Positions 2,932-61,114 of a stretch of 64,000 nucleotides of DNA are shown here, in pieces (position 1 is the first letter of the stretch; each line of letters begins with the position of its first letter). Both the position numbers and the translations under genes were made by a program. The notes below the pieces were generated by a model that saw only the letters and a list, made by a program, of their open reading frames with translations, was not told the DNA's origin and ran no database searches. Source of the DNA: an uncultured delta proteobacterium (lineage in GTDB: Bacteria > Desulfobacterota > Binatia > HRBIN30). Location of the stretch: positions 296,150 through 360,149 of the forward strand of contig CAVSQF010000022.1 in the NCBI GenBank assembly GCA_963729835.1, read 5' to 3'.

Positions 2932-4330
2932 CATGGAAAAATGTTTCCACGTGACAATATGGGGCGAAGGAAACAACCGAGTACGTCCGATGGCTTTGCG
3001 GCTGTTGCTCGGGGCCACGCTGGCGGCGGCAATCGTGTCATTTGCGGGCACCGAGGCCAGGGCGGTCCCGAGCTTTGCGCGGCAAACGGGGCTGGCCTGT
3101 TCCTCGTGTCACACGACGTTTCCCGAGCTCAACGCCTTCGGGCGTGCGTTCAAGATGCACGGGTATTCCGCGCTTGGAATGAAGGAGCTCGAAGAAACTG
3201 GCAGTGACAAGACGCCACCGTTGACGATCAATCGGGCCTTTCCTTTGTCGGTGATGTTCCAGACATCGATCACCCGAACCAATCAGGCACAACCTGGAAC
3301 ACAGAATGGCAACGTCGAGTTCCCGCAGCAGATCAGCCTCTTTCTCGCCGGGGAGATCACGCCCCACATCGGTACGTTCCTGCAGGCGACCTACGACGGG
3401 CAGAGCGACCACTTCACGCTCGACAACACCGATATCCGATTCGTCAACGATGCCCAGATCAACGGGAAGGAACTGCTCTATGGCCTCACCTTGAATAACA
3501 ACCCGACGGTGGAGGATCCCTGGCACAGCACGCCGGCCTGGGGCTTCCCGTTCGCGGCGTCAGACACCGCACCGTCGCCCGCCGCGAGCGCGCTTGTGGA
3601 CGGGGCGCTGGCGCAGCAGGTGGCAGGGGCAGGCAGCTACGCCCTCTGGAACAGGCATCTCTATGCCAACGTGGCGGTGTACCGGACCGCGAAGATCGGG
3701 AACCCCCAGCCACCGCCGGGAAACAGCAGCGGTACGATCCGGGATGTCGCGCCCTATTGGCGGCTCGCGTGGCAGCAGAACTGGGGAGCCAACTACCTCG
3801 AGCTAGGCACCTTTGGGATGTTCGCTCAAATGTTTCCCGACTTGAAGGATGCCGACGGTAACCCGATCAACTCTGCCGGCACCGACAAGTTCACCGATCT
3901 GGCCTTCGACACCCAATACGAGCGCCCGCTCGGCAAGGATTTCATCTCGGCGCACGCAACCTACATTTATGAGAACCAGCAGCTTGACGCTACGCAAGGC
4001 GCCGGCGCCTCGGCCCGGCGCAACGACAAGTTGCACACCTTCCGCCTCGATGGCATTTACCACTGGCGCGAGCGCCTGGCGCTGGCACTCGGCTACTTCC
4101 TCACGCGCGGGACGAACGACGCAACGTTCTACTCAAGCAGCATCAACGGCAGCCCGGACAGCGACGGCGTGCGGACCGAGATTAGCTATTTCCCGTGGCA
4201 AAACGTGAGGCTGTCTCTCCAGTACACGGTGTACACGGAGTTCGACGGCCGCAGCCATAACTTCGACGGCAGCGGTCGTGACGCGGTCGACAACAACACG
4301 CTCTACGCACTGCTGTGGCTGATGTACTAA
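2932..4330 (+). CDS. cyc2: Cyc2-like fused monoheme cytochrome c / outer-membrane beta-barrel (candidate Fe(II) oxidase or EET porin-cytochrome)
   Basis: Strong SD AAGAGGAGG 5 nt before ATG at 2932 (alternative ATG at 2989). Signal peptide MALRLLLGATLAAAIVSFAGTEARA. A single CxxCH (CSSCH) lies 10 residues into the mature protein. The following ~430 aa is amphipathic and beta-rich and ends in aromatic residues (LWLMY), typical of beta-barrel OMPs. Size and architecture match Cyc2. Confidence 0.65.
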
Positions 4331-26875: not shown

Positions 26876-27081
26876 ACAGGCTTTCCTAGCAGCCTGGCGG
26901 CAAAATCGGAAGGTGTGCCGGCGTGCTGACGCGCGTCGTCTCCAATCTTTTCTGGCGCTCTGTCCGCGGCCGTGCTCCAATGAGGCATGTATTCTTCGCG
27001 CCGGCCAATTCCGGCGAGCGCCGTGCCCCGACGGATCGTGCCGTCGACCGGCGGGCCACACCGAGTTAAGGAGTGCAACTG

Positions 27082-28122
27082 ATGCGGTCATCACTAGTTG
27101 TGATCAACGGTCCGATTGATTCCCGTGCGCGGCGCAGCCGATCGACGCTCGCATGGCTTTGGGTGGTGAGTGTCGCGGTGCTTCTGGGCTTGCTTCCGGC
27201 GAGCCACTCGCAGGCGGCGGTCGACATCGCAGCGCAGGAAGCCTTTCTGCGCACCGCGCCGGGCGGCGGCGATGAAGTGACCACACCGGCGGTGGGCCAG
27301 ACCGTCTACTTCCACGTCGGCTTTCAGCTGACGGGGCCCGCGGGCTCGGTGGCGGTGAGCCAGCGTGCGTTGCTCGATGGGGCTGAGTTCTGCGCCTTCA
27401 CCGAGGACACCACTCCCGGCGATTGGTTCTCCTGGTGTCTCGACGGCTGGACGGCCACGGCGGGGACGCACACGCTGCAATGGGACCTCGACTACACGAA
27501 CACGGTGGCGGAAACCAACGAGAACAACAACTCGGTCTCCACGACGTGGACGAGCGGCGGGCCGACATCGACGCCGACGCCGGGCAGCGGAGTGGATATC
27601 GCGGCGCAGCGCGCGTTTCTGCGCACCGCGCCGGGCGGCGGCGATGAAGTGACCACACCGGCGGTGGGCCAGACCGTCTACTTCCATGTCGGCTTTCAAT
27701 TGACGGGGGCCACGGGCTCGCTGGCAATCAGTGGGCGAGCGCGATTGGATGGCGGCGACTTCTGCACGTTCACCTCGGACATCACAACCGGCACCTGGAC
27801 GGCGTGGTGCACCGGGGGCTGGACGGCGACCGCGGGGACGCACACCCTGCAGTGGGACCTCGACTACACGAACCAGGTGGCGGAAACGAACGAGAACAAC
27901 AACTCGGCCGCCACGACGTGGACGAGCGGCGGGCCGACCTGCGTTGGCGATTGCAATCACAGCGGCGAGGTCACTGTGGGCGAGCTCGTCACCATGGTGA
28001 ACATCGCCTTGGGCAGCGCGGCGTTATCCGCCTGCCCGGCCGGTGACGCCGATGGCAGCGGCACCATCGAGATCAACGAGATCATCGCCGCCGTGAACAA
28101 CGCCCTGGACGGTTGCCCGTGA
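27082..28122 (+). CDS. secreted protein with two tandem CARDB-like domains and C-terminal dockerin-like double repeat
   Basis: SD AAGGAG. Signal peptide. Two ~125-aa repeats ([38 protein letters not shown]...[22 protein letters not shown]). C-term [25 protein letters not shown]...[21 protein letters not shown]. Confidence 0.7.
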
Positions 28123-30709: not shown

Positions 30710-32687
30710 ATGGTACGAACTGGGCTGAAGGCGTGGGTGGTCGCGGGCGTGGTGGTGGTATCGCTGCTCGGATTGCGAGCCGGCAGCAGCGCGATCTCGC
30801 TCGACAGCGACGGCGACATGAAGTTGGGCGTGCGGACGTACGTCAACGCCCGAGTTGGGACGGAGGATACGCATGACGGTGTGATGACGACGCCCGTCAC
30901 CGATCCAACTACGGGCCAGTCCGTGACGACCTCGACCTCCGCGACCTTCCCACACTCGAGTCGCCGGCCATCTGCGGCAGAATCGTTTCTTCATCGAAGT
31001 CGAGCTGAACCACGACCTCGATCGGCTTGCGAATCAAGGCGTCGGCCCCTTGAGCCTCCTCAAAGAGTTGCCGTTCAAAGTGAAGGGGCTGGCGTACCAC
31101 TTCACGTTTCGCGGCGAGGGAGACGGTCTGTACGACTGGGGACCTTGGGAGTACAGCACGGCACAGCCGATCCAGGAATTGAGAACCACATCCCCCCCCA
31201 GCTCACTTGTCTACCGCCAAGGTCCCGGTGGGGCCCCCTTAGACTGCACCACTGACCCGCGCTGTGGCCGCCAAACTTTCATCGACGTCGCGGCAGAACG
31301 GGAGAAAATCCGCCGCCTCGGCACAGACCGGGAACGGCTGTTCCAAGCCTACGTCGAAGGGGATGTCGGGAATTTATTCGTGCGGGTGGGGCGGCAAATC
31401 CTCGCCTGGGGTGAAACGGACGCCTTCCGACTCCTCGATCAGATCAACCCGACCGACAGCAGCTTCGGAGGATTCCTCGTTCCCCTTGACGAACGGCGCC
31501 TCCCACTCGATATGCTCCTGGCCAACTACTACCTCGGTGATTACGGGCCGTTCACGGAGATGCATCTGGAAGGCTATGCGGCCATTGACAATAGCGTTTC
31601 GTACTATCCGGGCGGCAGCAGTGTCTCGCCGTGGGGGCTCCCGAGCGACACGGCACCGGGGAACGAGGTGGAGCACTTCCTCATCCGGCCTGCCCGGACC
31701 ATCAACAACACACGCGGCGGATTCCAGTTGAAGTTCAACGTCCTGGACGCCACGTTTGGCGTCGCGCATTATTACACGCACCCTGACATCGAGGCCCTGG
31801 ACTCCCACACAAATCCGTGGGACCCTAATGGCAGCGGCGCGAGGGGTTTGCTCACCGCCTTCGATGAGGGCCTCCCATGCCCGATTATGAGCGGCAACAG
31901 CTCACAGAGCGTGGTGATAGGTGAGGATTTCTCCAACCGTCATTGCGGTTATATGGTACACATGTATCACACGGCGCCGAAGATGCAGGTGACCGGCGCC
32001 TCGACAACGTTTGCTCTGCCGCAGTATTACAGCGTGTTTCGGAGTGAGTTCGCGTATTTCAAAGACGAGGCCCACTTCAGGCAGCGCCAGCTCGACCCCT
32101 TTATATACAATAACCCTTTCAACACCCCCGACCCTTTCCACCCAGGGAAGAACTACCCCCATCTTGCCACGGGAGGCCGGGATCTCGGAGACTCGCTCAA
32201 TGCCATGGTGGGCCTCGATAACAACCAGTGGATCCGGTTTCTGAACCCGAATCAAACCTTTTTCATCTCGACGCAGTTCTTCTACAAACACATTCTCGAC
32301 GCGGGGGACCACAACATCTGGAGCTTGGGCAAGAACGGTCAGCGGCTCCTCAACCCGAATCGCGAAGTCCTTCCACTCTATTTGACTGAGACGCCTAATG
32401 GAGGGCAGGCGGAACCTGTCTTCATCACCAACCCGGCGGACTCCTACCTGCAAACCCTGATGATCGGCACCGATTACCGGAGCGGTACAATCTCCCCCAG
32501 CCTGACGTTCTTCTACGACTGGGGCGGCGCTTTCGTTTATCAGCCGGCGATCACGTTCACCCATGATCCCTTCCGCTTCGCGATCGATTACAGCATAATC
32601 GACGCGCATATCTACAAGGGTGGCAGCGGCGTCAGCTTGCTCAAGGATCGGGACAACGTCCAGTTCCGCTTCGAGTATGTGATCTGA
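30710..32687 (+). CDS. DUF1302 family outer-membrane protein, interrupted by an apparent frameshift near 30930-30960
   Basis: Frame 1 gives signal peptide (MVRTGLKAWVVAGVVVVSLLGLRAGSSA). Frame 2 from ~30927 gives the DUF1302 body (...LFVRVGRQILAWGETDAFRLLDQINPTD...), ending FRFEYVI. No start codon with signal peptide exists in frame 2. Confidence 0.6.
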
Positions 32688-50439: not shown

Positions 50440-51773
50440 GGCAAAGGCACCTTCGTTGTCCCGCCGCTGATCGCGTGGAAGCTGTTCGGCGTTGAGTTGC
50501 GGTGGCTGCCGTTGTTCCGCAAGACCATTCAGTTGCGCGAGGTGGTCATCGACTCGCCACACGTGTCGGTCGAACGCTTGCAGGACGGCGGGTTGAACCT
50601 CACCGCGTTGATGCCTGCATCTGTGATGCCGGCATCCGGCGCGCAGCCGCCTCCGAGCCCCGCACCCGCCGAGGTCCAACCGAAGTCCGGTTGGGGATTC
50701 GGGGTGAATCGTATCGTCTTGCGCACCGGGAATATCCGCTTCCAAGACTTGATGATGACGCAGAGCGAGCCGATCAAAATTCGATTACCGGCAATCGCGG
50801 TGACGAACATCGCCCTTCGTCCCGGCGCGCCGCGGGCGCCGATATCCGCGTGCGCGGCAAGCTGAACCTCGTTGAGCCCCGCGTGGCGGCGGCGAATGCG
50901 AAGGAGTTCGCAGTGGCGGTAAAATCCCTCGACGTCGGATTCGATGAGCTGCTGATCCCCAATCCGCAACACCCGAAGCCGGCGCCGCTGCGTGTCCGCC
51001 TGGGCGACGTCAGCATCGCATCACCGGACATCCAGGTGACGCGGACGAAGGACGGCTTCGTGCTCCCACAGCTCACCGGTGCGCCAGCGGCCGCGCGGCA
51101 GCAGCCGCCGGCCGCGTCCAAAGAGTCGAGCGGGACCAGCACGAGCACGCCGGCTGCGAAGCCCAGTTTCGACATTTCACTGGCAGCCTTTCGCCTCGCA
51201 AAGGGCCGCATCGCGTTTACCGATCAGGCCGTCAAGCCGCACTATTCCGGGCTCATTTCACCGCTCGATGTCGAGGTGCAGGAGGCGCACTTTCCGCCGA
51301 TGGCGGCGGGTAGAGTTCGCCTGAACGCCACCGTTGCTCCGCAAGGCACGATCAAAGCGGCCGGTACCATGCAGCCTGCGGGTGGCATCGTCGAGTTGAA
51401 GGTCGACGACCTCGGTCTGACGCCGTTCAATCCGTACGCGACCGCGTACTCGCCGTATGGCATCGGTGAGGGAAGCTTGACGGTGAGCACGAAGGCAGCG
51501 TTCTCGTCCGACGGCTATAAGGCGGACAGCTCGATTGTGCTGCACAATCTGGATGTCACGGGCGCAGAAGGCGACTCCCTGTTTCAGAAGAACTTCGGCA
51601 TTCCGCTCACGGTGCCTCGCGGATCACTCGCAGTGAGGCTGGCGCCGAGGTCACGGACGCTCCGCCCCTCGTCCGCCTACATATCGGCCCCGTGCGAAAG
51701 GGTTGAGCCGGGTGGAGCTGTTCGAGGTTTGAAACTTCAACGCCCGACGAGCTGCATCATCGCTTCCGGGTAG
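50440..51773 (+). pseudogene. AsmA-family/DUF748-like protein, N-terminally truncated and frameshifted (~50830)
   Basis: Frame A 50440-50865 (...REVVIDSPHVSVERLQDGGLNLTAL...). Frame B ~50830-51773 (...IAFTDQAVKPHYSGLISPLDVEVQEA...LHNLDVTG). No signal/TM N-terminus or proper start. Confidence 0.4.
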
Positions 51774-52720: not shown

Positions 52721-53448
52721 CTGGTCTCCTCTTGTAAGAGGCTCACATTCTGTCACGCGGCAGGGCGGAGCGGAATACGGGGTGAGCAGCGCGTCTTTCA
52801 GGGAGAGATCCGGCGCCTGAAATCGCGGCCATCGCAGACGACGGCCAATTGACAGACGCAGCCGCGACGGCGTCGGAAGATCAAGCGAGTGGCCAATCAG
52901 GGGCCCGCTGCTCCTCCGGCGCCTTTCTTTATCGAACGCAGATGCGCAAGGGGCTGCTGAAGAAGCCGCCGGCCTCGATTTGCGGCCATCTGCGTCACCC
53001 TCCTGCGCAGCGGCGTGAGGGCACGCCGGCTCCAGAAAGCACACTCTTTCGGCAACCTTCTTCGCCCGTCTTTCTGAACGCCACGGGAAGGCACCTCGTG
53101 GAGGAGTGGAACTGATGTGCGCGCTGGCAGTGCGGCACGGTCTGACCATCTTCACGACCGACTCCGACTTCACCCACTATGCCAAAGTCCTTCCGATCAA
53201 ACTGCACGTGCCGTCGCAACCATTGGTGGCCGGCGAGTCTACTCCGGCATGAGTCCCTTTTGAATTGACATTTCGCTCCGGGTCAGAGTACTAGGAACCG
53301 ACGAGCGCCTTGACGCTGCGGCGAAGTACATGTGCTACGCCCGAGCCCGTGCGTGAGGGGTAGGTCTCGCGGAGACAGCAGGAAGGCGAGCGGAGAAGGG
53401 TTCTGAGGTAACATCAAAACACAACCGCTGACGAGAGGAGAGAAGATC

Positions 53449-55016
53449 ATGAAGAGGTCCCCAAAAAGCAAGAAAAAAGTATCCGCAGGGTTAACGAGGC
53501 GAGACACAGTGAAGCTTGCAGGCTTGGCCCTGGGCGGGCTGGCAGTTGGGGGTGTAATGGGCTGTGAGGGGTCGGGCAAGGCCCGCGCGCAGCAACAATG
53601 CGGCGACAACGGCTGCAACTACCCGGTGCCCCCTGATACCACGCAGGAGTATCTCTACCCTAACGGTCTAGGCGTGTTTACGCCGGACACGCCGCTCGAT
53701 CCTGATGAGATGCGGATCACATTTCTCGGGACAGCGTTCCCTCCCTTACGGCGGGCACAACAGATGATGAGCATCTTCGTAGAGGTGGGCCCGTGGGTCC
53801 CAGTCCCAGGTGGACCCGGCAAAGCGACGGACTCCTTCGTCTTCGACTGCGGCTCGGGTCGTTACCAATTACAGCGCCATGGGGATTTCGCCAAGCCGGA
53901 TGGACAAGATCTTCATCTCGCATCTTCACGCCGACCACATGAGCGACCTGAGCGCAATCTACTGCTTCGGCCCCTCACGAGACCGCAAGTGCCCCCTGTA
54001 CGTTTGGGGACCGGGGCCTTCGGGCGTGAAAAATCCCAGAGCACCGGCCCGCTGTACTACGATGACGGCACCAACGATTTCTGCGATAACCTCCGGAAAG
54101 CCATGCGGTGGCACTCGGAGAGCTTCAGCTTCCTACCGACGAGCTACACCAATTACCAATGGCATTCCCACCCAGCAGAGTTGGGGACTGCCGTGCGATC
54201 CGGTCCCCGTCGGAGACGATCGCTCCGGATGACGGCTACGCCCTGGTCCCCATCGAGCTGGACTGGACGAAGTACGGCAAGAACGGCAAGAGGGACAATG
54301 TCGCCTACAACAACCCGACAACGGGCGTGAAGATCACCCACTTCCCGGTGGTCCATGCCAGAAAGGGTTCCATCGGCTACAAGCTCGAGTGGAACGGCCT
54401 GACCATGATCTACACGAGTGACACCCGGCCCGAAACCCGCTGCATCGACCAGGCCAACAACGGAGGCAAGGGCGTGGACGTGTTCATCCACGAGATGATC
54501 CTTCCGCCGGAACTGTTGACCATGAAGAATTATCCGGGCTTAACGTCTCCGCCGCCGCCGGGTACGAACCCTGCAGCTCTTGATGCCGCCGTCCAGTATA
54601 CGACGAATGTCGAAGACAGCTCCCACACTCCACAGGGGGCCTTCGGGTACCTCCTCAGCCAGATAAATCCTCGTCCGCGGCTCACGGTCATCGCGCATTT
54701 TCCAGCGGCCGACGATACCGTCGCATGTGCCATGAACAGCGTCCAGGCACACTTCCCGAATGGCGGCTACCCGGTGTTGGGTAGGGATATCATCTGGTCT
54801 ACGGACCTCATGGTGCTGAGAGTAAAGCAGAGTGGGATCACCCAGCTCATGGGCAAGGTCTCGGATTACACGTTCAGCCCACCCGCGGACCCGTCTGCCC
54901 CCCAGGGGACTCCCAAATACCACACCGCCGACGGGCAGAGTGATCCGACCGCCCAGATCGACACGTCGACGGTGATACAGCCAGGGAACAACACCTACTG
55001 CGAGAACGGGTATTGA
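53449..55016 (+). CDS. Tat-signal MBL-fold metallo-hydrolase, reading frame broken by three single-base frameshifts (~53878, ~54045, ~54190)
   Basis: MKRSPKSKKKVSAGLTRRDTVKLAGLALGG (twin-arginine). Frame1 ...FVFDCGSG, then frame2 VVTNYSAMGISPSRMDKIFISHLHADHMSDL (HxHxDH), then frame1 GPLYYDDGTNDFCDNLRKAMRWHSESF, then frame3 APDDGYALVPIELDWTKYG... to 55016. Confidence 0.55.
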
Positions 55017-55061
55017 TGGAGGTGATATCCCCTACGGCGGATGAGTGAAGTCGGCGCCGCG

Positions 55062-56413
55062 CTACAGTCTCCGCTTGTCGACAACGCGCACCGCCTTGCC
55101 CTCGGTGCGCGCGATCTGCCGTGGGCCCACGAGCGTGACGTTGCAGCTGATGCCGAGCGCGCTGCGGACCTCGTGGCTCAGCAGTCTCTCGTGCTGAACG
55201 AGGCGATCGCGGTTCGCGCACATCTCCGCCGGTGCCTCCACGACCACCTCCAGCTCGTCCATGTGCTCGGCGGCGCGATCCACGATGATCTGATAGTGCG
55301 GCGTCACCTCGCCGACGCGCAACAAAACGGCTTCGACCTGCGACGGGAACACATTGACACCGCGCACGATGATCATGTCGTCGGTGCGCCCGACCAGCCG
55401 GTCTATGCGAACGGTGGTGCGGCCGCAGGTGCATGGCTCGCGCATCAGCCGCGTCCGATCCCGGTCCGGTAGCGGATCAACGGCAAGGCTTCCTTGGTCA
55501 CGCACGTCAGCACGAGCTCGCCCACCTCGCCGTCGGGCAGCGGCTCCGTGGTCTGCGGATCGATGATCTCCGGAATGAAGTGATCCTCGAAAACGTGCAT
55601 GCCCTGCTGCTCGCGGCATTCAAAGGCCACCCCCGGACCGATCACCTCCGACAAGCCATACATATTGAGCGCCACGATGCCGAGGCGCGACTCGATTTCC
55701 TGCCGCATACGCTCGGACCAGGGCTCGGCGCCGAAGAGGCCGATCTTCAGCGGCAGCGACGCCGGGTCGATGCCCTCGTCGTCTGCGACCTCCGCGATCA
55801 GCAGCGCGTAGGACGGCGTGCAACACAGCACCGTGCTGCCGCAGTCGCGTATAAGCGTTAGCTGCCGCTTGGTGTTGCCGCCCGACACGGGGATCACCGT
55901 GGCGCCGATGCGCTCGGCGCCGTAGTGGAAACCGAGTCCACCTGTGAACAGGCCGTACCCGTAGGCGTTGTGAACGACGTCGTGCTCGGTCACGCCGGCC
56001 GCGGCGTAGGCGCGCGCGATCAGGTCGGCCCACAGTGCAATGTCGTTCTGCGTGTAGGCCACCACCGTCGGCTTACCCGTCGTCCCGCTGGAAGCGTGGA
56101 TGCGGATCACCTCTTTCATCGGCACCGCCAGCAGACCGAACGGATAGTTGTCGTGCAGGTCGCTCTTGGTCGTGAACGGCAACCGGACGAGATCGTCGAG
56201 CGACCGGATCCGTTCCGGGAGTCCTCGCCCACCGCGCAGCTTGTCGCGGTAGAACGGAACCGTCTTCGACAGCCGATCGATGCCGGCGCGCAGACGCTCC
56301 AGTTGCAGCCGTTCCAAGTCTCGCCGCGGAAGGCGCTCCACCTGGTCGCGAATGGCGGACCTGATTGCCGGCGTAGGCGTACGGCCCGGGCCGGCCGCGC
56401 TCGTCTCGTGCAT
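55062..56413 (-). CDS. paaK: phenylacetate-CoA ligase family (PaaK / F390 synthetase-like), one frameshift in a G-run at ~55453
   Basis: [15 protein letters not shown], then ...LIRYRTG | [15 protein letters not shown]...[17 protein letters not shown] continues in the -1 frame. Restoring one G in CCGGG(G) gives continuous IRYRTGDRTRL. Confidence 0.75.
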
Positions 56414-57021
56414 CAGACCACTCCGCTCACGGCGTGCGGCGCCATCTGCCGGATCCGAAGAGCCCCAAGCTGCAGTGCGCGCAGGTTCATATCGACCAGA
56501 TCTTTTCTCCTTCTGGCGAACATCTCCGAGACTGCCGCCCGCAGCGACTCCGGCCTGACGCCCACAAACTCCGACGCGGCCCCGATCAGGACGATGTTTT
56601 GCGCGCGCGCGGTTCCTGCTTCTCTCGCCACCGTAGCCGCATCGATCAGGTACACCTTGCGACCGCAGCCCTGCAGCAGCTTCATCAACTTCTCACGCGG
56701 CGGGTAGTCTGGAATATTCTCGACGGTGGCGCTGTTTGTCACGATCAAGCCGCCGGGCGACAGGTAATCGATGTTCCGCAGCGCCTCGAGCGGTTCGGTT
56801 GCGAGAATGAGATCGGCGCGGCCCTTCGGAACGAGGTTGCTGAACAACGGCCCATCGGAGAGGCGCACATGGGCTTCAACCGCCCCACCGCGCTGGCTCA
56901 TCCCATGCACCTCCGCCTGCCGGACGTTCAGCCCCTCGCGCACGGCGGCATTCACGATCAGCACCGCCAGCGTGAGGATGCCTTGTCCGCCGACGCCGGC
57001 CAGAACGATATCCCGCTTCAC
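56413..57021 (-). CDS. iorB: indolepyruvate:ferredoxin oxidoreductase beta subunit (IorB)
   Basis: GTG start after [33 protein letters not shown]; 202 aa. Stop overlaps paaK ATG (ATGA). Confidence 0.75.
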
Positions 57022-57025
57022 CGTT

Positions 57026-57134
57026 CCTCACCGTTTCCGCGCCAGGTGGATGCACTTATGGGCATGCTTCGCGTGGTGACTCACGGGGTCTTGGTACCAT
57101 CAGTGCCGCTGCTTGTGCAACGAGAATGCGGCTC
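57026..57134. repeat. cassette-boundary repeat, copy 1 (CCTCACCGTTTCCGCGCCAGGTGGA ... GGGGTCTTGGTACCATCAGTGCCGCTGCTTGTGCAACG)
   Basis: Conserved 25-bp left box and ~50-bp right box flank a variable middle. Copies at 57026, 59291, 61030. Confidence 0.8.
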
Positions 57135-57484
57135 AGTGGATAGTTCCTACAAACGGGGTAATTGCCATAAGGGCTACCTATCAGACGTTCCCGTCATCCC
57201 GGATCTGCCCCGGAAAATTCCGGACGCCCTACGGAAAGCGCGGTGAGTGCCAAACGGGGTTGGGTTTTGTTTGGCGCGAAACCGGCGCAGTCCGAAACGC
57301 CCGTCCGAGCCCGGCTGAGCGGCGTCCACCCGGATGAGGGCGGAGTAATGAAGAAGAAAAAGGAACAGAGAAAAAAGGACGGGAACAGCTCGAAGCGGTC
57401 TTTGGGGGCCGGCGCTTTACTCTCCCCTAAGTTACGAGGGCGAGATCTCAGATCCGAGCGCAAAGGGTACTTGTACCCTGGTCC

Positions 57485-59164
57485 TTAGGGCGCCGCCGTT
57501 GCTGGTTCAGGTAGTTGAGCGTTTTTCCGAGCATTGCAGCCGCGATGAGCTAGCTGCCCATTCTCAGGGACAGTTTTCCCGCCCTTACTGTAGGGGATGA
57601 TGTGATCGACGGTACTATCATCCAGCGAGTGAATTTCATTCTTGCAGAGCTGACACACGGGGGACTTGTCGTACAGATTCTTCCTGAACTCAAAATCGAA
57701 GAAACGTGGCTCGATCAAACTGCCATCGATGATGGGCTGGACGAGTCCGCGAAACTTGGTCCATCGGAGTTTTGTCTGCGCAGTGCTACCGGTTCGTTTC
57801 GAAATAGCATCCTGCATCTCCACGTCCGTTAACATCGTTAGCAGGAACAGCTCGCGAATCTGTTCCGCCGCCTGTTGGACTTTAGCCGCTTGCTGATTCA
57901 TTAACGCTGACGCCTGAATGTCAAAGGCTGTCACGGAGAATCTCATGTCCCAGCTGCCCTTGTTCGTGCGTGGATTGACTTCGTAAAGTCTGGCAGCCTT
58001 GTCGCCGAAAACTGCGTAGATGTTCTGCATAGTTTGCCTGAATAGCGTTGCATGGGCTTTTAGTTGTTGGTCGTCCCGTGGAGCGTATTGCTCCATATAT
58101 TCGTTGAGGAACCTCTTAAGGTTTCCAGTATAGCTGTTCAGCCTGTTTGCAAAGGCAAAGAAACGTAGAATCATTTCCCGCTCCTTGAATCGCCCTTCAG
58201 GTCCATCTCCTCCCTTGGACTTCCGCCAGTATGTGTCCTGTTCCAGTTCCGCAAGGAGGTCATTGAACGGTCCGCGATAGACGCAGTTCCGAAGTTCTTG
58301 CTCGTTCAGCGTCATCGAACCACGGTTCAGGCGCTCAAAGACCTCATACCGGAGCTCCGTGTTAACCCCGGCATCGATGACGATGCTCCGAATGGGGGTA
58401 TCCAAAATCTTTTCTTGTTGCTGTTTGGTGAGGTCCCGGAAGAACTTGTGATTAAGGCTGGCCATTCGGTGCAATTTCCGAAGGGGAAACTTGTTCAAGA
58501 CGAAGTTCACAAGGGTCGTGAGACGTTGCTGGCCATCGATCATCTCCAGCCGCCCATCGCTAACTTTTCCGAAATAGATTGGCGGGATCGGGATTTCGAG
58601 CAGCAATGATTCAATCAAACGTGAAGGCAGTTCGGGGCGCAAGTTCCAGACGTATTCTCTTTGAAACTTGGGTTGAAGATCCAGTTGCCCTCTGTCCAGC
58701 TTGTCCCTAAGAGCCGAGATCGTCCAGTCAGAACTCTGGCTCATTACAGGGCGATCATCGGGTTTTCCAATAGGTTGCTCTTCCTCTTGATCCGGTTCTA
58801 GCTGATCCTCTGAAAGTGTTGGCTCTTCAGCTTCGCCGTTGCCAGCACTCGCAGTGACAGATGCTGACGGCGAATTCTGCGAACTTGAGGCTTCGTGATG
58901 GGTCGGTGGGGTATTGGCTTGCTTGCTTGCGGTAGTTGGAACCAAAACGAAGCGAACCAGCTCGTCGATTCCCGCATCGTCCAGCATCGGGTCAGTTTCT
59001 AGGCCAAGACCTGCCATAACAACTTTAATATCGGAAAGAACATTGGCCCCACGCCTGGAGGCCCCAAACCACTTGAGGACTGCGCGAACCTTGTACCTCC
59101 TGGGAACTTCCCCGTTCTTCAATTGCTGTGCTACTTCGACAATTCGTTTTGGAGCCTCGTTCAT
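57485..59164 (-). CDS. DUF262 (ParB-like) + C-terminal HNH nuclease, GmrSD/SspE-like defence protein
   Basis: DGQQRLTT (DUF262), acidic low-complexity linker, C-terminal VDHIIPYSKGGKTVPENGQLAHRGCNARKN (HNH). Region is visibly lower in GC than flanks. Confidence 0.75.
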   Translation of the reverse strand: MNEAPKRIVEVAQQLKNGEVPRRYKVRAVLKWFGASRRGANVLSDIKVVMAGLGLETDPMLDDAGIDELVRFVLVPTTASKQANTPPTHHEASSSQNSPSASVTASAGNGEAEEPTLSEDQLEPDQEEEQPIGKPDDRPVMSQSSDWTISALRDKLDRGQLDLQPKFQREYVWNLRPELPSRLIESLLLEIPIPPIYFGKVSDGRLEMIDGQQRLTTLVNFVLNKFPLRKLHRMASLNHKFFRDLTKQQQEKILDTPIRSIVIDAGVNTELRYEVFERLNRGSMTLNEQELRNCVYRGPFNDLLAELEQDTYWRKSKGGDGPEGRFKEREMILRFFAFANRLNSYTGNLKRFLNEYMEQYAPRDDQQLKAHATLFRQTMQNIYAVFGDKAARLYEVNPRTNKGSWDMRFSVTAFDIQASALMNQQAAKVQQAAEQIRELFLLTMLTDVEMQDAISKRTGSTAQTKLRWTKFRGLVQPIIDGSLIEPRFFDFEFRKNLYDKSPVCQLCKNEIHSLDDSTVDHIIPYSKGGKTVPENGQLAHRGCNARKNAQLPEPATAAP

Positions 59165-59290
59165 GCATCACCTCCGTGCTTGGTCGCAGTGGCGTTTTGT
59201 GCGTGTTCTCGTTCTCGACCAGAGCATTCGGTCGCAGCTGGACAATCTTAGATCAACGGCCGGACAGTTGCCGCGTCCCCGTCCCGCGCC

Positions 59291-59408
59291 CCTCACCGTT
59301 TCCGCGCCAGGTGGAGCCACTCCCGCTGCGCGACGCATCCTTCATACAATAGACGCCCGGGGTCTTGGTACCATCAGTGCCGCTGCTTGTGCAACGTCAA
59401 CGCGACCC
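59291..59408. repeat. cassette-boundary repeat, copy 2
   Basis: Same left and right boxes as copy 1; longer variable middle. Confidence 0.8.
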
Positions 59409-59614
59409 ATGACTTCGTGACTTCGGGGACGATGGCACCTTCGGTACGTTTCGCCGGTGATTCGTATCAAGAGTGCCATCGTCCGTGGATCGCGCTGGAT
59501 CGCAACGTCCCTGGATCGCAACAGGGGTTTCTCTACGCTGACCAGTTGATCCAGGCTGCCGAGCGCGACGGAACGGGTGCTCCAACCGCACCTCCCAATA
59601 TGCTAGAAGCCATC

Positions 59615-59857
59615 ATGCCGACGGTATTCACAAAGGAGGGATTTCGCTTTCACTTCTACAGTAACGAGCGCAACGAGCCGCCGCACATTCATGTCACGGG
59701 CAAGGGCGGCGAGATGAAGATTTGGCTCCCCTCGCTGACCGTCGCGTTCTCCTTCGGCTTGTCGCCGCCCGCCCAGCGACGAGTCGTAGAGATCACCCAC
59801 GAGAATATGACACTACTCATGGAGCGTTGGAATGAGTTTAGCCGCAAGAAGAACTAG
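59615..59857 (+). CDS. DUF4160 family protein
   Basis: MPTVFTKEGFRFHFYSNERNEPPHIHV matches the DUF4160 core (..F.FYSNDHNPPHiHv). Confidence 0.7.
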   Translation: MPTVFTKEGFRFHFYSNERNEPPHIHVTGKGGEMKIWLPSLTVAFSFGLSPPAQRRVVEITHENMTLLMERWNEFSRKKN

Positions 59858-60074
59858 AAGTTACCCGGCGATTGTCGGCGCGAGCGTCAGCGCGGACCAA
59901 CTGACGGCGAAGCTGAGCGACGGCCGCGAGGTGTCGGTGCCGCTGGCGTGGTTTTCACGCTTGCTGAATGCCACTCCGGCACAACGAAGGAGGCTCGAGA
60001 TTTCGCCTGGAGGATACGGTATTCACTGGCCTGAGATTGACGAAGATATCAGTGTGAAGGCGTTCCTGGATTGA
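59832..60074 (+). CDS. DUF2442 family protein
   Basis: LSDGREVSVPLAWFSRLLNATPAQRRRLEISPGGYGIHWPEIDEDISVKAFL matches DUF2442. Overlaps the DUF4160 gene end (typical pair). Confidence 0.7.
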   Translation: MSLAARRTRSYPAIVGASVSADQLTAKLSDGREVSVPLAWFSRLLNATPAQRRRLEISPGGYGIHWPEIDEDISVKAFLD

Positions 60075-60127
60075 CGAAACGCGGGCAACCTCGGCGAAGG
60101 ACCGACGCGGCGTAACCTACCGTTTGC

Positions 60128-60562
60128 CTACGGCGCGACCACGGTGAAGCCACCGAACGTGGCAAAATCGCGCGCGTTCGTAGTCAGCACGGAGGAGATG
60201 CCTGCGCTGCGGAACGTGGTGGCCAGCATCGTGTCGAGCACGCGCTTTCGCCCGAGCTGGTGCGCGCGCATCCAGTCGAGAAACAGCCGCATCGCCTCGG
60301 CGTCCGGGGTAACCTGCTCGATCTCGGGCGCGTTCCACCAACTCTCCGCGCGATCCAATGCCTCGCCCATTGGCAGCGGCTGGGAAAACCGCTTTGCATC
60401 GGTGACCACATGGACAAACTCCGCGAGCACCTGCGGCGTGAGCGCGAAGGTGTCTCCGGCCTGGCGCAACGCCTTCAGCTTAGCGCGAGCTGCAGAATGT
60501 TCGGCGTGCTCCGCCACTTCCGCAGCCACGAGAAAGCTCGTGTCAAAACCGTGCGTCATCGA
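60128..60562 (-). CDS. vapC: PIN-domain toxin VapC
   Basis: MTHGFDTSFLVAAE (first Asp), later D and TTNARDF motif; ~144 aa. Confidence 0.8.
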   Translation of the reverse strand, partial: SMTHGFDTSFLVAAEVAEHAEHSAARAKLKALRQAGDTFALTPQVLAEFVHVVTDAKRFSQPLPMGEALDRAESWWNAPEIEQVTPDAEAMRLFLDWMRAHQLGRKRVLDTMLATTFRSAGISSVLTTNARDFATFGGFTVVAP

Positions 60563-60761
60563 GCATCTCCGCGAGCAGATCGTCCTCCGCACTCAGCGGC
60601 CGGAGAACTTCACCCAGCCGGAGCGGCGGAAGGTCCAGCGGGCTGCGCCTCACGCCGCCGGCTTGTCGCCGCCGCGCCGAGTGCACCAGGCGCTCGAGCT
60701 CCGAAAGCTCCTTCGGGCTCAATAACGGAATCGCGGCCTCGATCTCGGCCAGTGTACTCAT
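60543..60761 (-). CDS. VapB-like antitoxin (small, overlaps vapC start)
   Basis: MSTLAEIEAAIPLLSPKELSELERLVHSARRRQ...; 20-nt overlap with vapC. Confidence 0.55.
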   Translation of the reverse strand: MSTLAEIEAAIPLLSPKELSELERLVHSARRRQAGGVRRSPLDLPPLRLGEVLRPLSAEDDLLAEMLDDARF

Positions 60762-61029
60762 GGCGCAGAACGTAGCACGCGCGCGCCGCGGTCGACAAGG
60801 CAGAACAGCTGAGCTGACAGAAACGTAGGGGCGAGTGGGACGACTTGAGAGCGAGGTGCTTGTCGGAGGGCGGACAGTTGACGCTTCATCGCCCCTCAGA
60901 GCAAATCGGGCGCCCAATGCATGACGGGCAGCCCTCTATAGACATTGCAGCGACCAACCCTGTCCTGAGCCCCGTCGAAGGAGGGAGCGGACCCGCCGCA
61001 CGGACGCCGGGCGCAGCCCTCACCGTTTC

Positions 61030-61114
61030 CGCGCCGGTTGGATGTATGACTCACGGGGTCTTGGTACCATCACTGCGGCTGCTTGTGCAACGACAATGCA
61101 ACCCAGGCGAGGAC
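61030..61114. repeat. cassette-boundary repeat, copy 3
   Basis: Same boxes; shortest middle (TGTATGACTCAC). Confidence 0.8.

Follow-up and report, generated by a model that had tools for sequence, protein, structure and literature searches.

A single missing base splits the phenylacetate-CoA ligase gene, paaK, in the window (by which we mean the whole 64,000-nucleotide stretch of DNA analysed here), and our preferred interpretation, which we hold with moderate confidence, is that this frameshift is a genuine and recent one-base deletion in the sampled population, leaving paaK as a young pseudogene within a rearranged patch. The frameshift, the exact base concerned, the presence of the same change in a second assembly and the structural decay around it were all observed directly.

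The gene occupies 55062-56413 of the minus strand and is split at 55460-55465. Its N-terminal open reading frame (ORF; 55445-56413, minus strand) encodes 322 aa, of which 317 are native residues carrying the AMP-binding domain; these are followed by Gly where the homologues have Arg and then by an out-of-frame tail, IGRG, before the stop, such that the product ends RYRTGIGRG and is without the Asp of the RYRTRD motif. The other frame runs on to a stop at 55062, and this C-terminal part (55062-55445, minus strand), which carries the AMP-binding_C_2 domain, was called as a 127-aa ORF on contig L001 of the second assembly, where its start codon is the ATG of TGATG, in which stop and start overlap. 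Pfam assigns AMP-binding (PF00501, profile positions 167-374) to the first piece and AMP-binding_C_2 (PF14535, complete at profile positions 1-96 of 96) to the second. Searching with the PaaK proteins of relatives, tblastn gives two collinear matches that join at 55463, the first covering aa 1-317 and the second, in a different frame, aa 318-450. The split gene is no chance resemblance. Both PaaK domains are present but in two reading frames, and they form a single polypeptide only if one base is added, which gives an ORF of 450 aa that has just one stop. The reconstructed protein aligns at 89-93% identity and 100% coverage with 450-aa proteins named phenylacetate-CoA ligase (JGI naming). The paaK frameshift proposed by an earlier, sequence-only reading of this DNA is thus borne out, in that the tblastn and Pfam pieces are collinear and one base restores a full-length, conserved PaaK.

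The same reading had placed the shift in a G homopolymer and offered CCGGGG, encoding RTGD, as the restoring sequence, and on both counts the DNA of relatives says otherwise. The closest DNA relatives compared for paaK, contigs L002-L006, have 92-93.5% nucleotide identity to the window, and their alignment with it contains one gap only, which lies in the window. At the junction the relatives read CGC TAC CGG ACC CGG GAT CGG (RYRTRDR), where the window reads CGCTACCGGACCGGGATCGG; against the shorter string CGG ACC CGG GAT CGG, the window reads CGGACCGGGATCGG, so that ACC GGG AT stands at the frameshift site in place of the relatives' ACC CGG GAT. L002-L006 thus have CCCGGG here, and the RYRTRD motif is found in 119 of 120 PaaK homologues. 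We conclude from the relatives' DNA and from the conservation of this motif that the missing base is a C of the 3-nt CCC run on the coding strand (CCCGGG to CCGGG), the lost C corresponding to the plus-strand GG run at 55463-55464. In the relatives paaK is intact, encoding 445-450 aa, and the shift is therefore lineage-specific. The gene comes after iorB in the window, as it does in the relatives.

A deletion from CCCGGG to CCGGG would fall in the RYRTRD motif itself and would part the two PaaK domains. We take the position of this motif to correspond to the Y-[RK]-T-G-D 'A7' motif of the adenylate-forming enzyme superfamily, the Asp of which contacts the nucleotide. The C-terminal domain could at best restart from the overlapping ATG of TGATG, and neither product would carry the motif Asp. 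With the Asp lost and the domains parted, PaaK would be expected to be inactive.

The second assembly consists of Logan contigs of run ERR11594402, five of which were found by exact-protein look-up, allowing 21.1 kb to be compared with the window. Logan discards 31-mers that occur only once in a run and simplifies the resulting graph with Minia3 (PMC12424806); adjacent contigs share 30 nt, the overlap that k=31 should give. Over the 21.1 kb, the only differences from the window are one indel and one dinucleotide. Contigs L093 (46283-51866), L094 (32551-38668) and L095 (57282-59297) show no difference from the window; L092 (27657-32580) has one gap, which corresponds to an extra C in a DUF1302 gene; and L001 (54635-57113) has the dinucleotide difference, at 54998-54999, and no gaps. 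L001 carries the same paaK split, with products of 322 and 127 aa. Along with the paaK frameshift, the junction of a deletion that removed iorA (in L001, as far as 57113) and the remnant of a DUF748 gene are identical in the Logan contigs. Given the k-mer filtering and the simplification by Minia3, the deleted paaK allele is the dominant or only path in the ERR11594402 reads. Furthermore, since Logan differs from the contig at DUF1302, it is able to reveal contig-specific indels, and it does not flag paaK. We infer that the reads are correct at paaK and that the loss is biological.

The neighbourhood of paaK is genuinely rearranged, forming a patch of about 10 kb that contains true gene remnants. 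The relatives have iorA, iorB and paaK in that order, and then a convergent vapBC pair. The iorB gene of the window (56413-57021, minus strand), which encodes the beta subunit of an indolepyruvate oxidoreductase of the POR family, is intact, with 202 aa and a GTG start, and overlaps the start of paaK by one base. No IorA match was found in the window by tblastn, the gene being about 1.68 kb long in the relatives. Comparison by blastn with L002, L003 and L004 locates the deletion junction at 57026-57138 (minus strand), where 57058-57138 matches the relatives' region upstream of iorA and 57026-57054 is the last 29 nt of iorA itself. The PIN (VapC) toxin gene survives as a 3' remnant (53074-53223, plus strand) with only about aa 76-140 left, matching the relatives' gene at 96% identity over 53112-53223. 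A gene for an MBL-fold hydrolase and its upstream region (53224-55057) stand exactly where, in the relatives, 123 nt separate the convergent genes paaK and vapC; the insertion is of this one gene, and it coincides with a truncated vapC and a missing vapB. Upstream of iorB there is a GmrSD/HNH gene, with toxin-antitoxin genes, in lower-GC DNA. If the paaK deletion is real, the loss of paaK would thus be set in a decaying patch in which iorA has been deleted, VapC and DUF748 have been reduced, and low-GC defence and toxin-antitoxin genes have been inserted upstream.

The same region contains a composite element of about 130 nt in three copies that have diverged to 63-90% identity, at 57011-57136, 59276-59410 and 61003-61106. 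Each copy joins the relatives' iorA-upstream sequence to the last 27-46 nt of iorA, the junction point differing between copies, and in the copy at 61 kb the spacer between iorA and iorB is retained as well, together with the initial 8 nt of iorB. Between the copies lie two low-GC inserts, one containing GmrSD_N/HNH (57485-59164) and the other DUF4160/DUF2442 and VapBC (59387-60917). The repeats contain no attC-like hairpins (fold z-scores +0.5 to +1.3), and the window has no Rfam or tRNA match. One could suppose that the composite copies mark an undescribed cassette-accretion hotspot which replaced iorA and began the decay of iorB and paaK, rather than a set of unrelated deletions, and we think this quite improbable.

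Substitutions bear on the age of the event. With its frame corrected, PaaK shows no deviation at any of 134 invariant columns and three deviations among the 241 columns with conservation of at least 95%, for which the median of the other sequences is 2. On the branch leading to the window there are 18 synonymous and 5 non-synonymous codon changes in the part of paaK that precedes the shift, and 10 of either kind in the part that comes after. This post-shift excess is confined to the last ∼170 nt and so does not set in with the shift: the 231 nt directly after the shift contain just 3 private nucleotide changes, while 22 of the window's 51 private changes in paaK lie at 55071-55233 (minus strand), beside the synteny break at 55058. 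The pattern of changes in this divergent tract makes it look like a recombination tract rather than the product of post-frameshift decay. The relaxed constraint expected of a pseudogene is therefore not seen in paaK, there being no excess of non-synonymous change tied to the shift; the equivalent branch test for iorB was uninformative, with 9 synonymous and 10 non-synonymous changes for the window and 2 against 9 for one of the relatives. The counts for paaK ahead of the shift show purifying selection, and so a gene that was functional until recently. It follows that the argument from the loss of iorA is only circumstantial, and that the disruption of paaK, being unaccompanied by substitution decay, is either very recent or not real.

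It is important to consider the paaK deletion alongside the other small indels of the window, of which we count seven: one in paaK, one in DUF1302 and five in the MBL gene. The sequence-only reading attributed such shifts to homopolymer error. Taking a homopolymer-type indel as one within a mononucleotide run, typically of at least 5 nt, we find that the paaK indel lies in a run of 3 nt and that those of DUF1302 and MBL lie outside runs of 3 nt or more; hence one of the seven lies in a run of at least 3 nt, in a window of which ∼13% of bases are in such runs. Nor do the frameshifts cluster at homopolymers within the window. They cluster in position, six of the seven being packed into 1610 nt, which none of 200,000 uniform simulations matched; with the MBL cluster taken as one event, the proximity of paaK to it is not significant (P = 0.13). 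Thus 'homopolymer error' is wrong as a general description of these small indels, a uniform contig-wide homopolymer error does not describe their pattern, and they have no single common cause.

A codon-usage Viterbi scan of six frames across the whole window found non-boundary same-strand switches only in paaK, DUF1302, DUF748 and MBL, and a more lenient frame scan of the window found no further frameshifts in the remaining ∼55 kb of coding sequence. Frame switches at 4327, 5260, 8947, 10915, 13723, 28120, 39112, 44313 and 60554 all proved to be ordinary gene boundaries. A secreted protein encoded at 27073-28122 has a segment of ∼125 aa repeated in tandem, in two copies with 82% identity as DNA (27285-27566 and 27657-27938), and it is at this repeat that a Logan contig ends; the gene that follows continues in the same frame past a single TGA and has its own signal peptide, making this too an ordinary gene boundary. 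The hexamer CCCGGG is intact at 15 other sites in the window (for example 4601, 56385 and 59356), one of them inside paaK, and a motif-specific (methylation-type) systematic error at CCCGGG is disfavoured by these intact sites. CCCGGG is under-represented in the window, with 15 observed against 35.8 ± 6.4 in dinucleotide-preserving shuffles that ignore codon structure, and either avoidance of restriction or coding bias may lie behind this.

The remaining broken genes differ in what lies behind them. The DUF1302 gene (30710-32687, plus strand) is shifted by a single surplus C at 30962 (AGT[C]GCCGG), and without it reads as a 658-aa ORF. A single-base shift had been noted near 30940, and this is confirmed, though there is no homopolymer there. 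In L092 the extra C is absent and the gene is one continuous ORF, so the extra base is specific to the window's contig, where it probably reflects either a minor allele or an error of consensus. The suspicion that the contig contains indel errors is supported at 30962 to the extent that the other assembly lacks this base, but it does not extend in the same way to paaK, whose shift is present in L001.

The DUF748/AsmA-like gene had likewise been read as carrying a single-base shift, near 50830, and here the break is instead the junction of an internal deletion of ∼1.2 kb, identical in L093. What is left is a pseudogene remnant (50464-51700, plus strand) of a gene that encodes 1129-1135 aa in the relatives L087 and L088. 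It keeps aa 108-232 (50464-50853) and, in a different frame, aa 629-889 (50832-51614), and possibly aa 1087-1131 (51572-51700). Relative to L087 and L088, some 107 N-terminal residues, ∼396 internal residues and a further ∼197 in the C-terminal block have been deleted. The first fragment is 65% identical to the relatives, compared with 81% for the second. The whole remnant is reproduced at 100% in L093.

The MBL-fold hydrolase gene (53449-55016, plus strand) is frameshifted, as the earlier reading held, by five indels rather than three, as alignment with the DNA of two homologous coding sequences, in L090 and L091, reveals. All five fall within 370 nt: the loss of one base after 53853, of one after 53862 (the base missing from CCCAG^AGC) and of one after 54039, a gain of four (TGGC) at 54160-54163, and a gain of one (C) at 54221, giving a frame path of 1>2>1>2>3. 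The second shift was also considered as the shortening of a run of six A to five, which the alignment with L090 and L091 rules out. Correcting the five indels produces a 521-aa ORF whose protein is 74-79% identical to intact homologues of 516-549 aa and deviates at none of 51 invariant columns and none of 124 columns conserved at 95% or more, where the median of the other sequences is 1. Five independent neutral indels without substitution decay are unlikely, which points to an artefact, to a consensus drawn from a mixture of strains or to a single complex event; from its sequence, the cluster looks artefactual. No Logan contig for 51867-54634, the stretch containing the cluster, came from exact look-ups of ten predicted partial products and of ten variants of the start. 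Querying with the N-terminus of MBL also returned no Logan contig, and as this search missed known homologues too, it excludes nothing. The dinucleotide difference between L001 and the window, an adjacent CT>TG at 54998-54999, changes a conserved Cys to Gly in the C-terminal NTYCENGY of MBL, and points to more than one strain in the read set or to a relaxation of constraint on MBL.

There are two explanations of the paaK frameshift that we take seriously. In favour of a real deletion are its presence in L001, the shortness of the 3-nt run, the structural decay nearby and the intact orthologues. Against it are the state of PaaK, where the lack of decay fits an artefact as well as it fits a very recent event, and that of MBL, which lies 1.2 kb away and suggests, by its five indels without decay, that the consensus is locally poor. 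The second explanation, then, is that the true sequence is CCCGGG and that a consensus or basecalling error in long reads dropped the C, with the same reads lying behind both the contig and Logan, and we regard this as a realistic if not a probable account. The source contig is 441,720 nt long and belongs to a MAG-type record, which suggests that it was assembled from long reads, whose errors are mainly indels. Soil MAGs built from Nanopore reads alone, with one round of Medaka polishing, are known to keep indel errors where coverage is lower (PMC12313526), and to connect this contig with those assemblies is conjecture. If ERR11594402 represents the assembly's own long reads, a context-specific basecalling error would show in both assemblies. 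A contig-specific indel has been demonstrated at 30962, PaaK and MBL are both free of substitution decay once their frames are corrected, and the MBL indels look like a stretch of poor consensus. However, the k-mer assembly reproduces the paaK deletion in L001 while L092 does not reproduce the DUF1302 insertion. A run of 3 nt is not the classic homopolymer problem, and the 15 other CCCGGG sites are intact. The near-complete agreement with Logan over 21.1 kb argues that the general quality of the consensus is high, and the lack of further frameshifts in the remaining ∼55 kb of coding sequence also speaks against an artefact.

That the split might instead be functional, either as a programmed -1 ribosomal frameshift or as a split enzyme whose two chains are translationally coupled through TGATG, would accord with the overlap between the stop of the 322-aa ORF and the ATG of a 127-aa ORF spanning the whole of AMP-binding_C_2, and with the perfect conservation of both halves of PaaK, yet we give it almost no credence, because all 120 homologues, including relatives of 92-93% identity, encode one continuous protein and the split occurs in no other lineage, the site (ACC GGG A) reads as no X XXY YYZ slippery heptamer, and the Asp of RYRTRD is absent from both products.

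If our preferred explanation, a recent real inactivation of paaK, is true, no new biology follows from it. Its relevance is to annotation quality, in that paaK, DUF1302 and MBL would be mis-called as fragments. Blanket 'homopolymer polishing' would be wrong for most of these cases, which include the remnant of a large deletion, a 4-nt insertion and an extra base outside any homopolymer. A public k-mer assembly of a run, on the other hand, can separate indels that are specific to a contig (DUF1302) from those that are in the reads (paaK, DUF748).

Compared with known systems, the reconstructed 450-aa protein is like phenylacetate-CoA ligase in being collinear over its full length and in having both Pfam domains and RYRTRD; it is unlike the PaaK family in that the window's gene, as written, is split inside RYRTRD, and in that iorA, which precedes iorB in the relatives, is missing. 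The locus resembles a young bacterial pseudogene in its one 1-nt deletion, its intact orthologues, its degraded neighbours and the recurrence of the deletion in a second assembly. Unlike a typical young pseudogene, it has no non-synonymous excess right after the shift, and its age is indistinguishable from zero, for which reason it is not separable from an artefact on sequence alone. With long-read homopolymer error it shares a single-base deletion in a mononucleotide run and a contig of a length that suggests long reads, another indel of which a read-based assembly contradicts; it departs from such error in that the run is of 3 nt, that six of the seven indels lie outside runs of at least 3 nt, that one is of +4 nt, that they are clustered, and that the paaK deletion is reproduced. 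The paaK case is a commonplace frameshift in a contig derived from a metagenome, with nothing about it that is new in kind.
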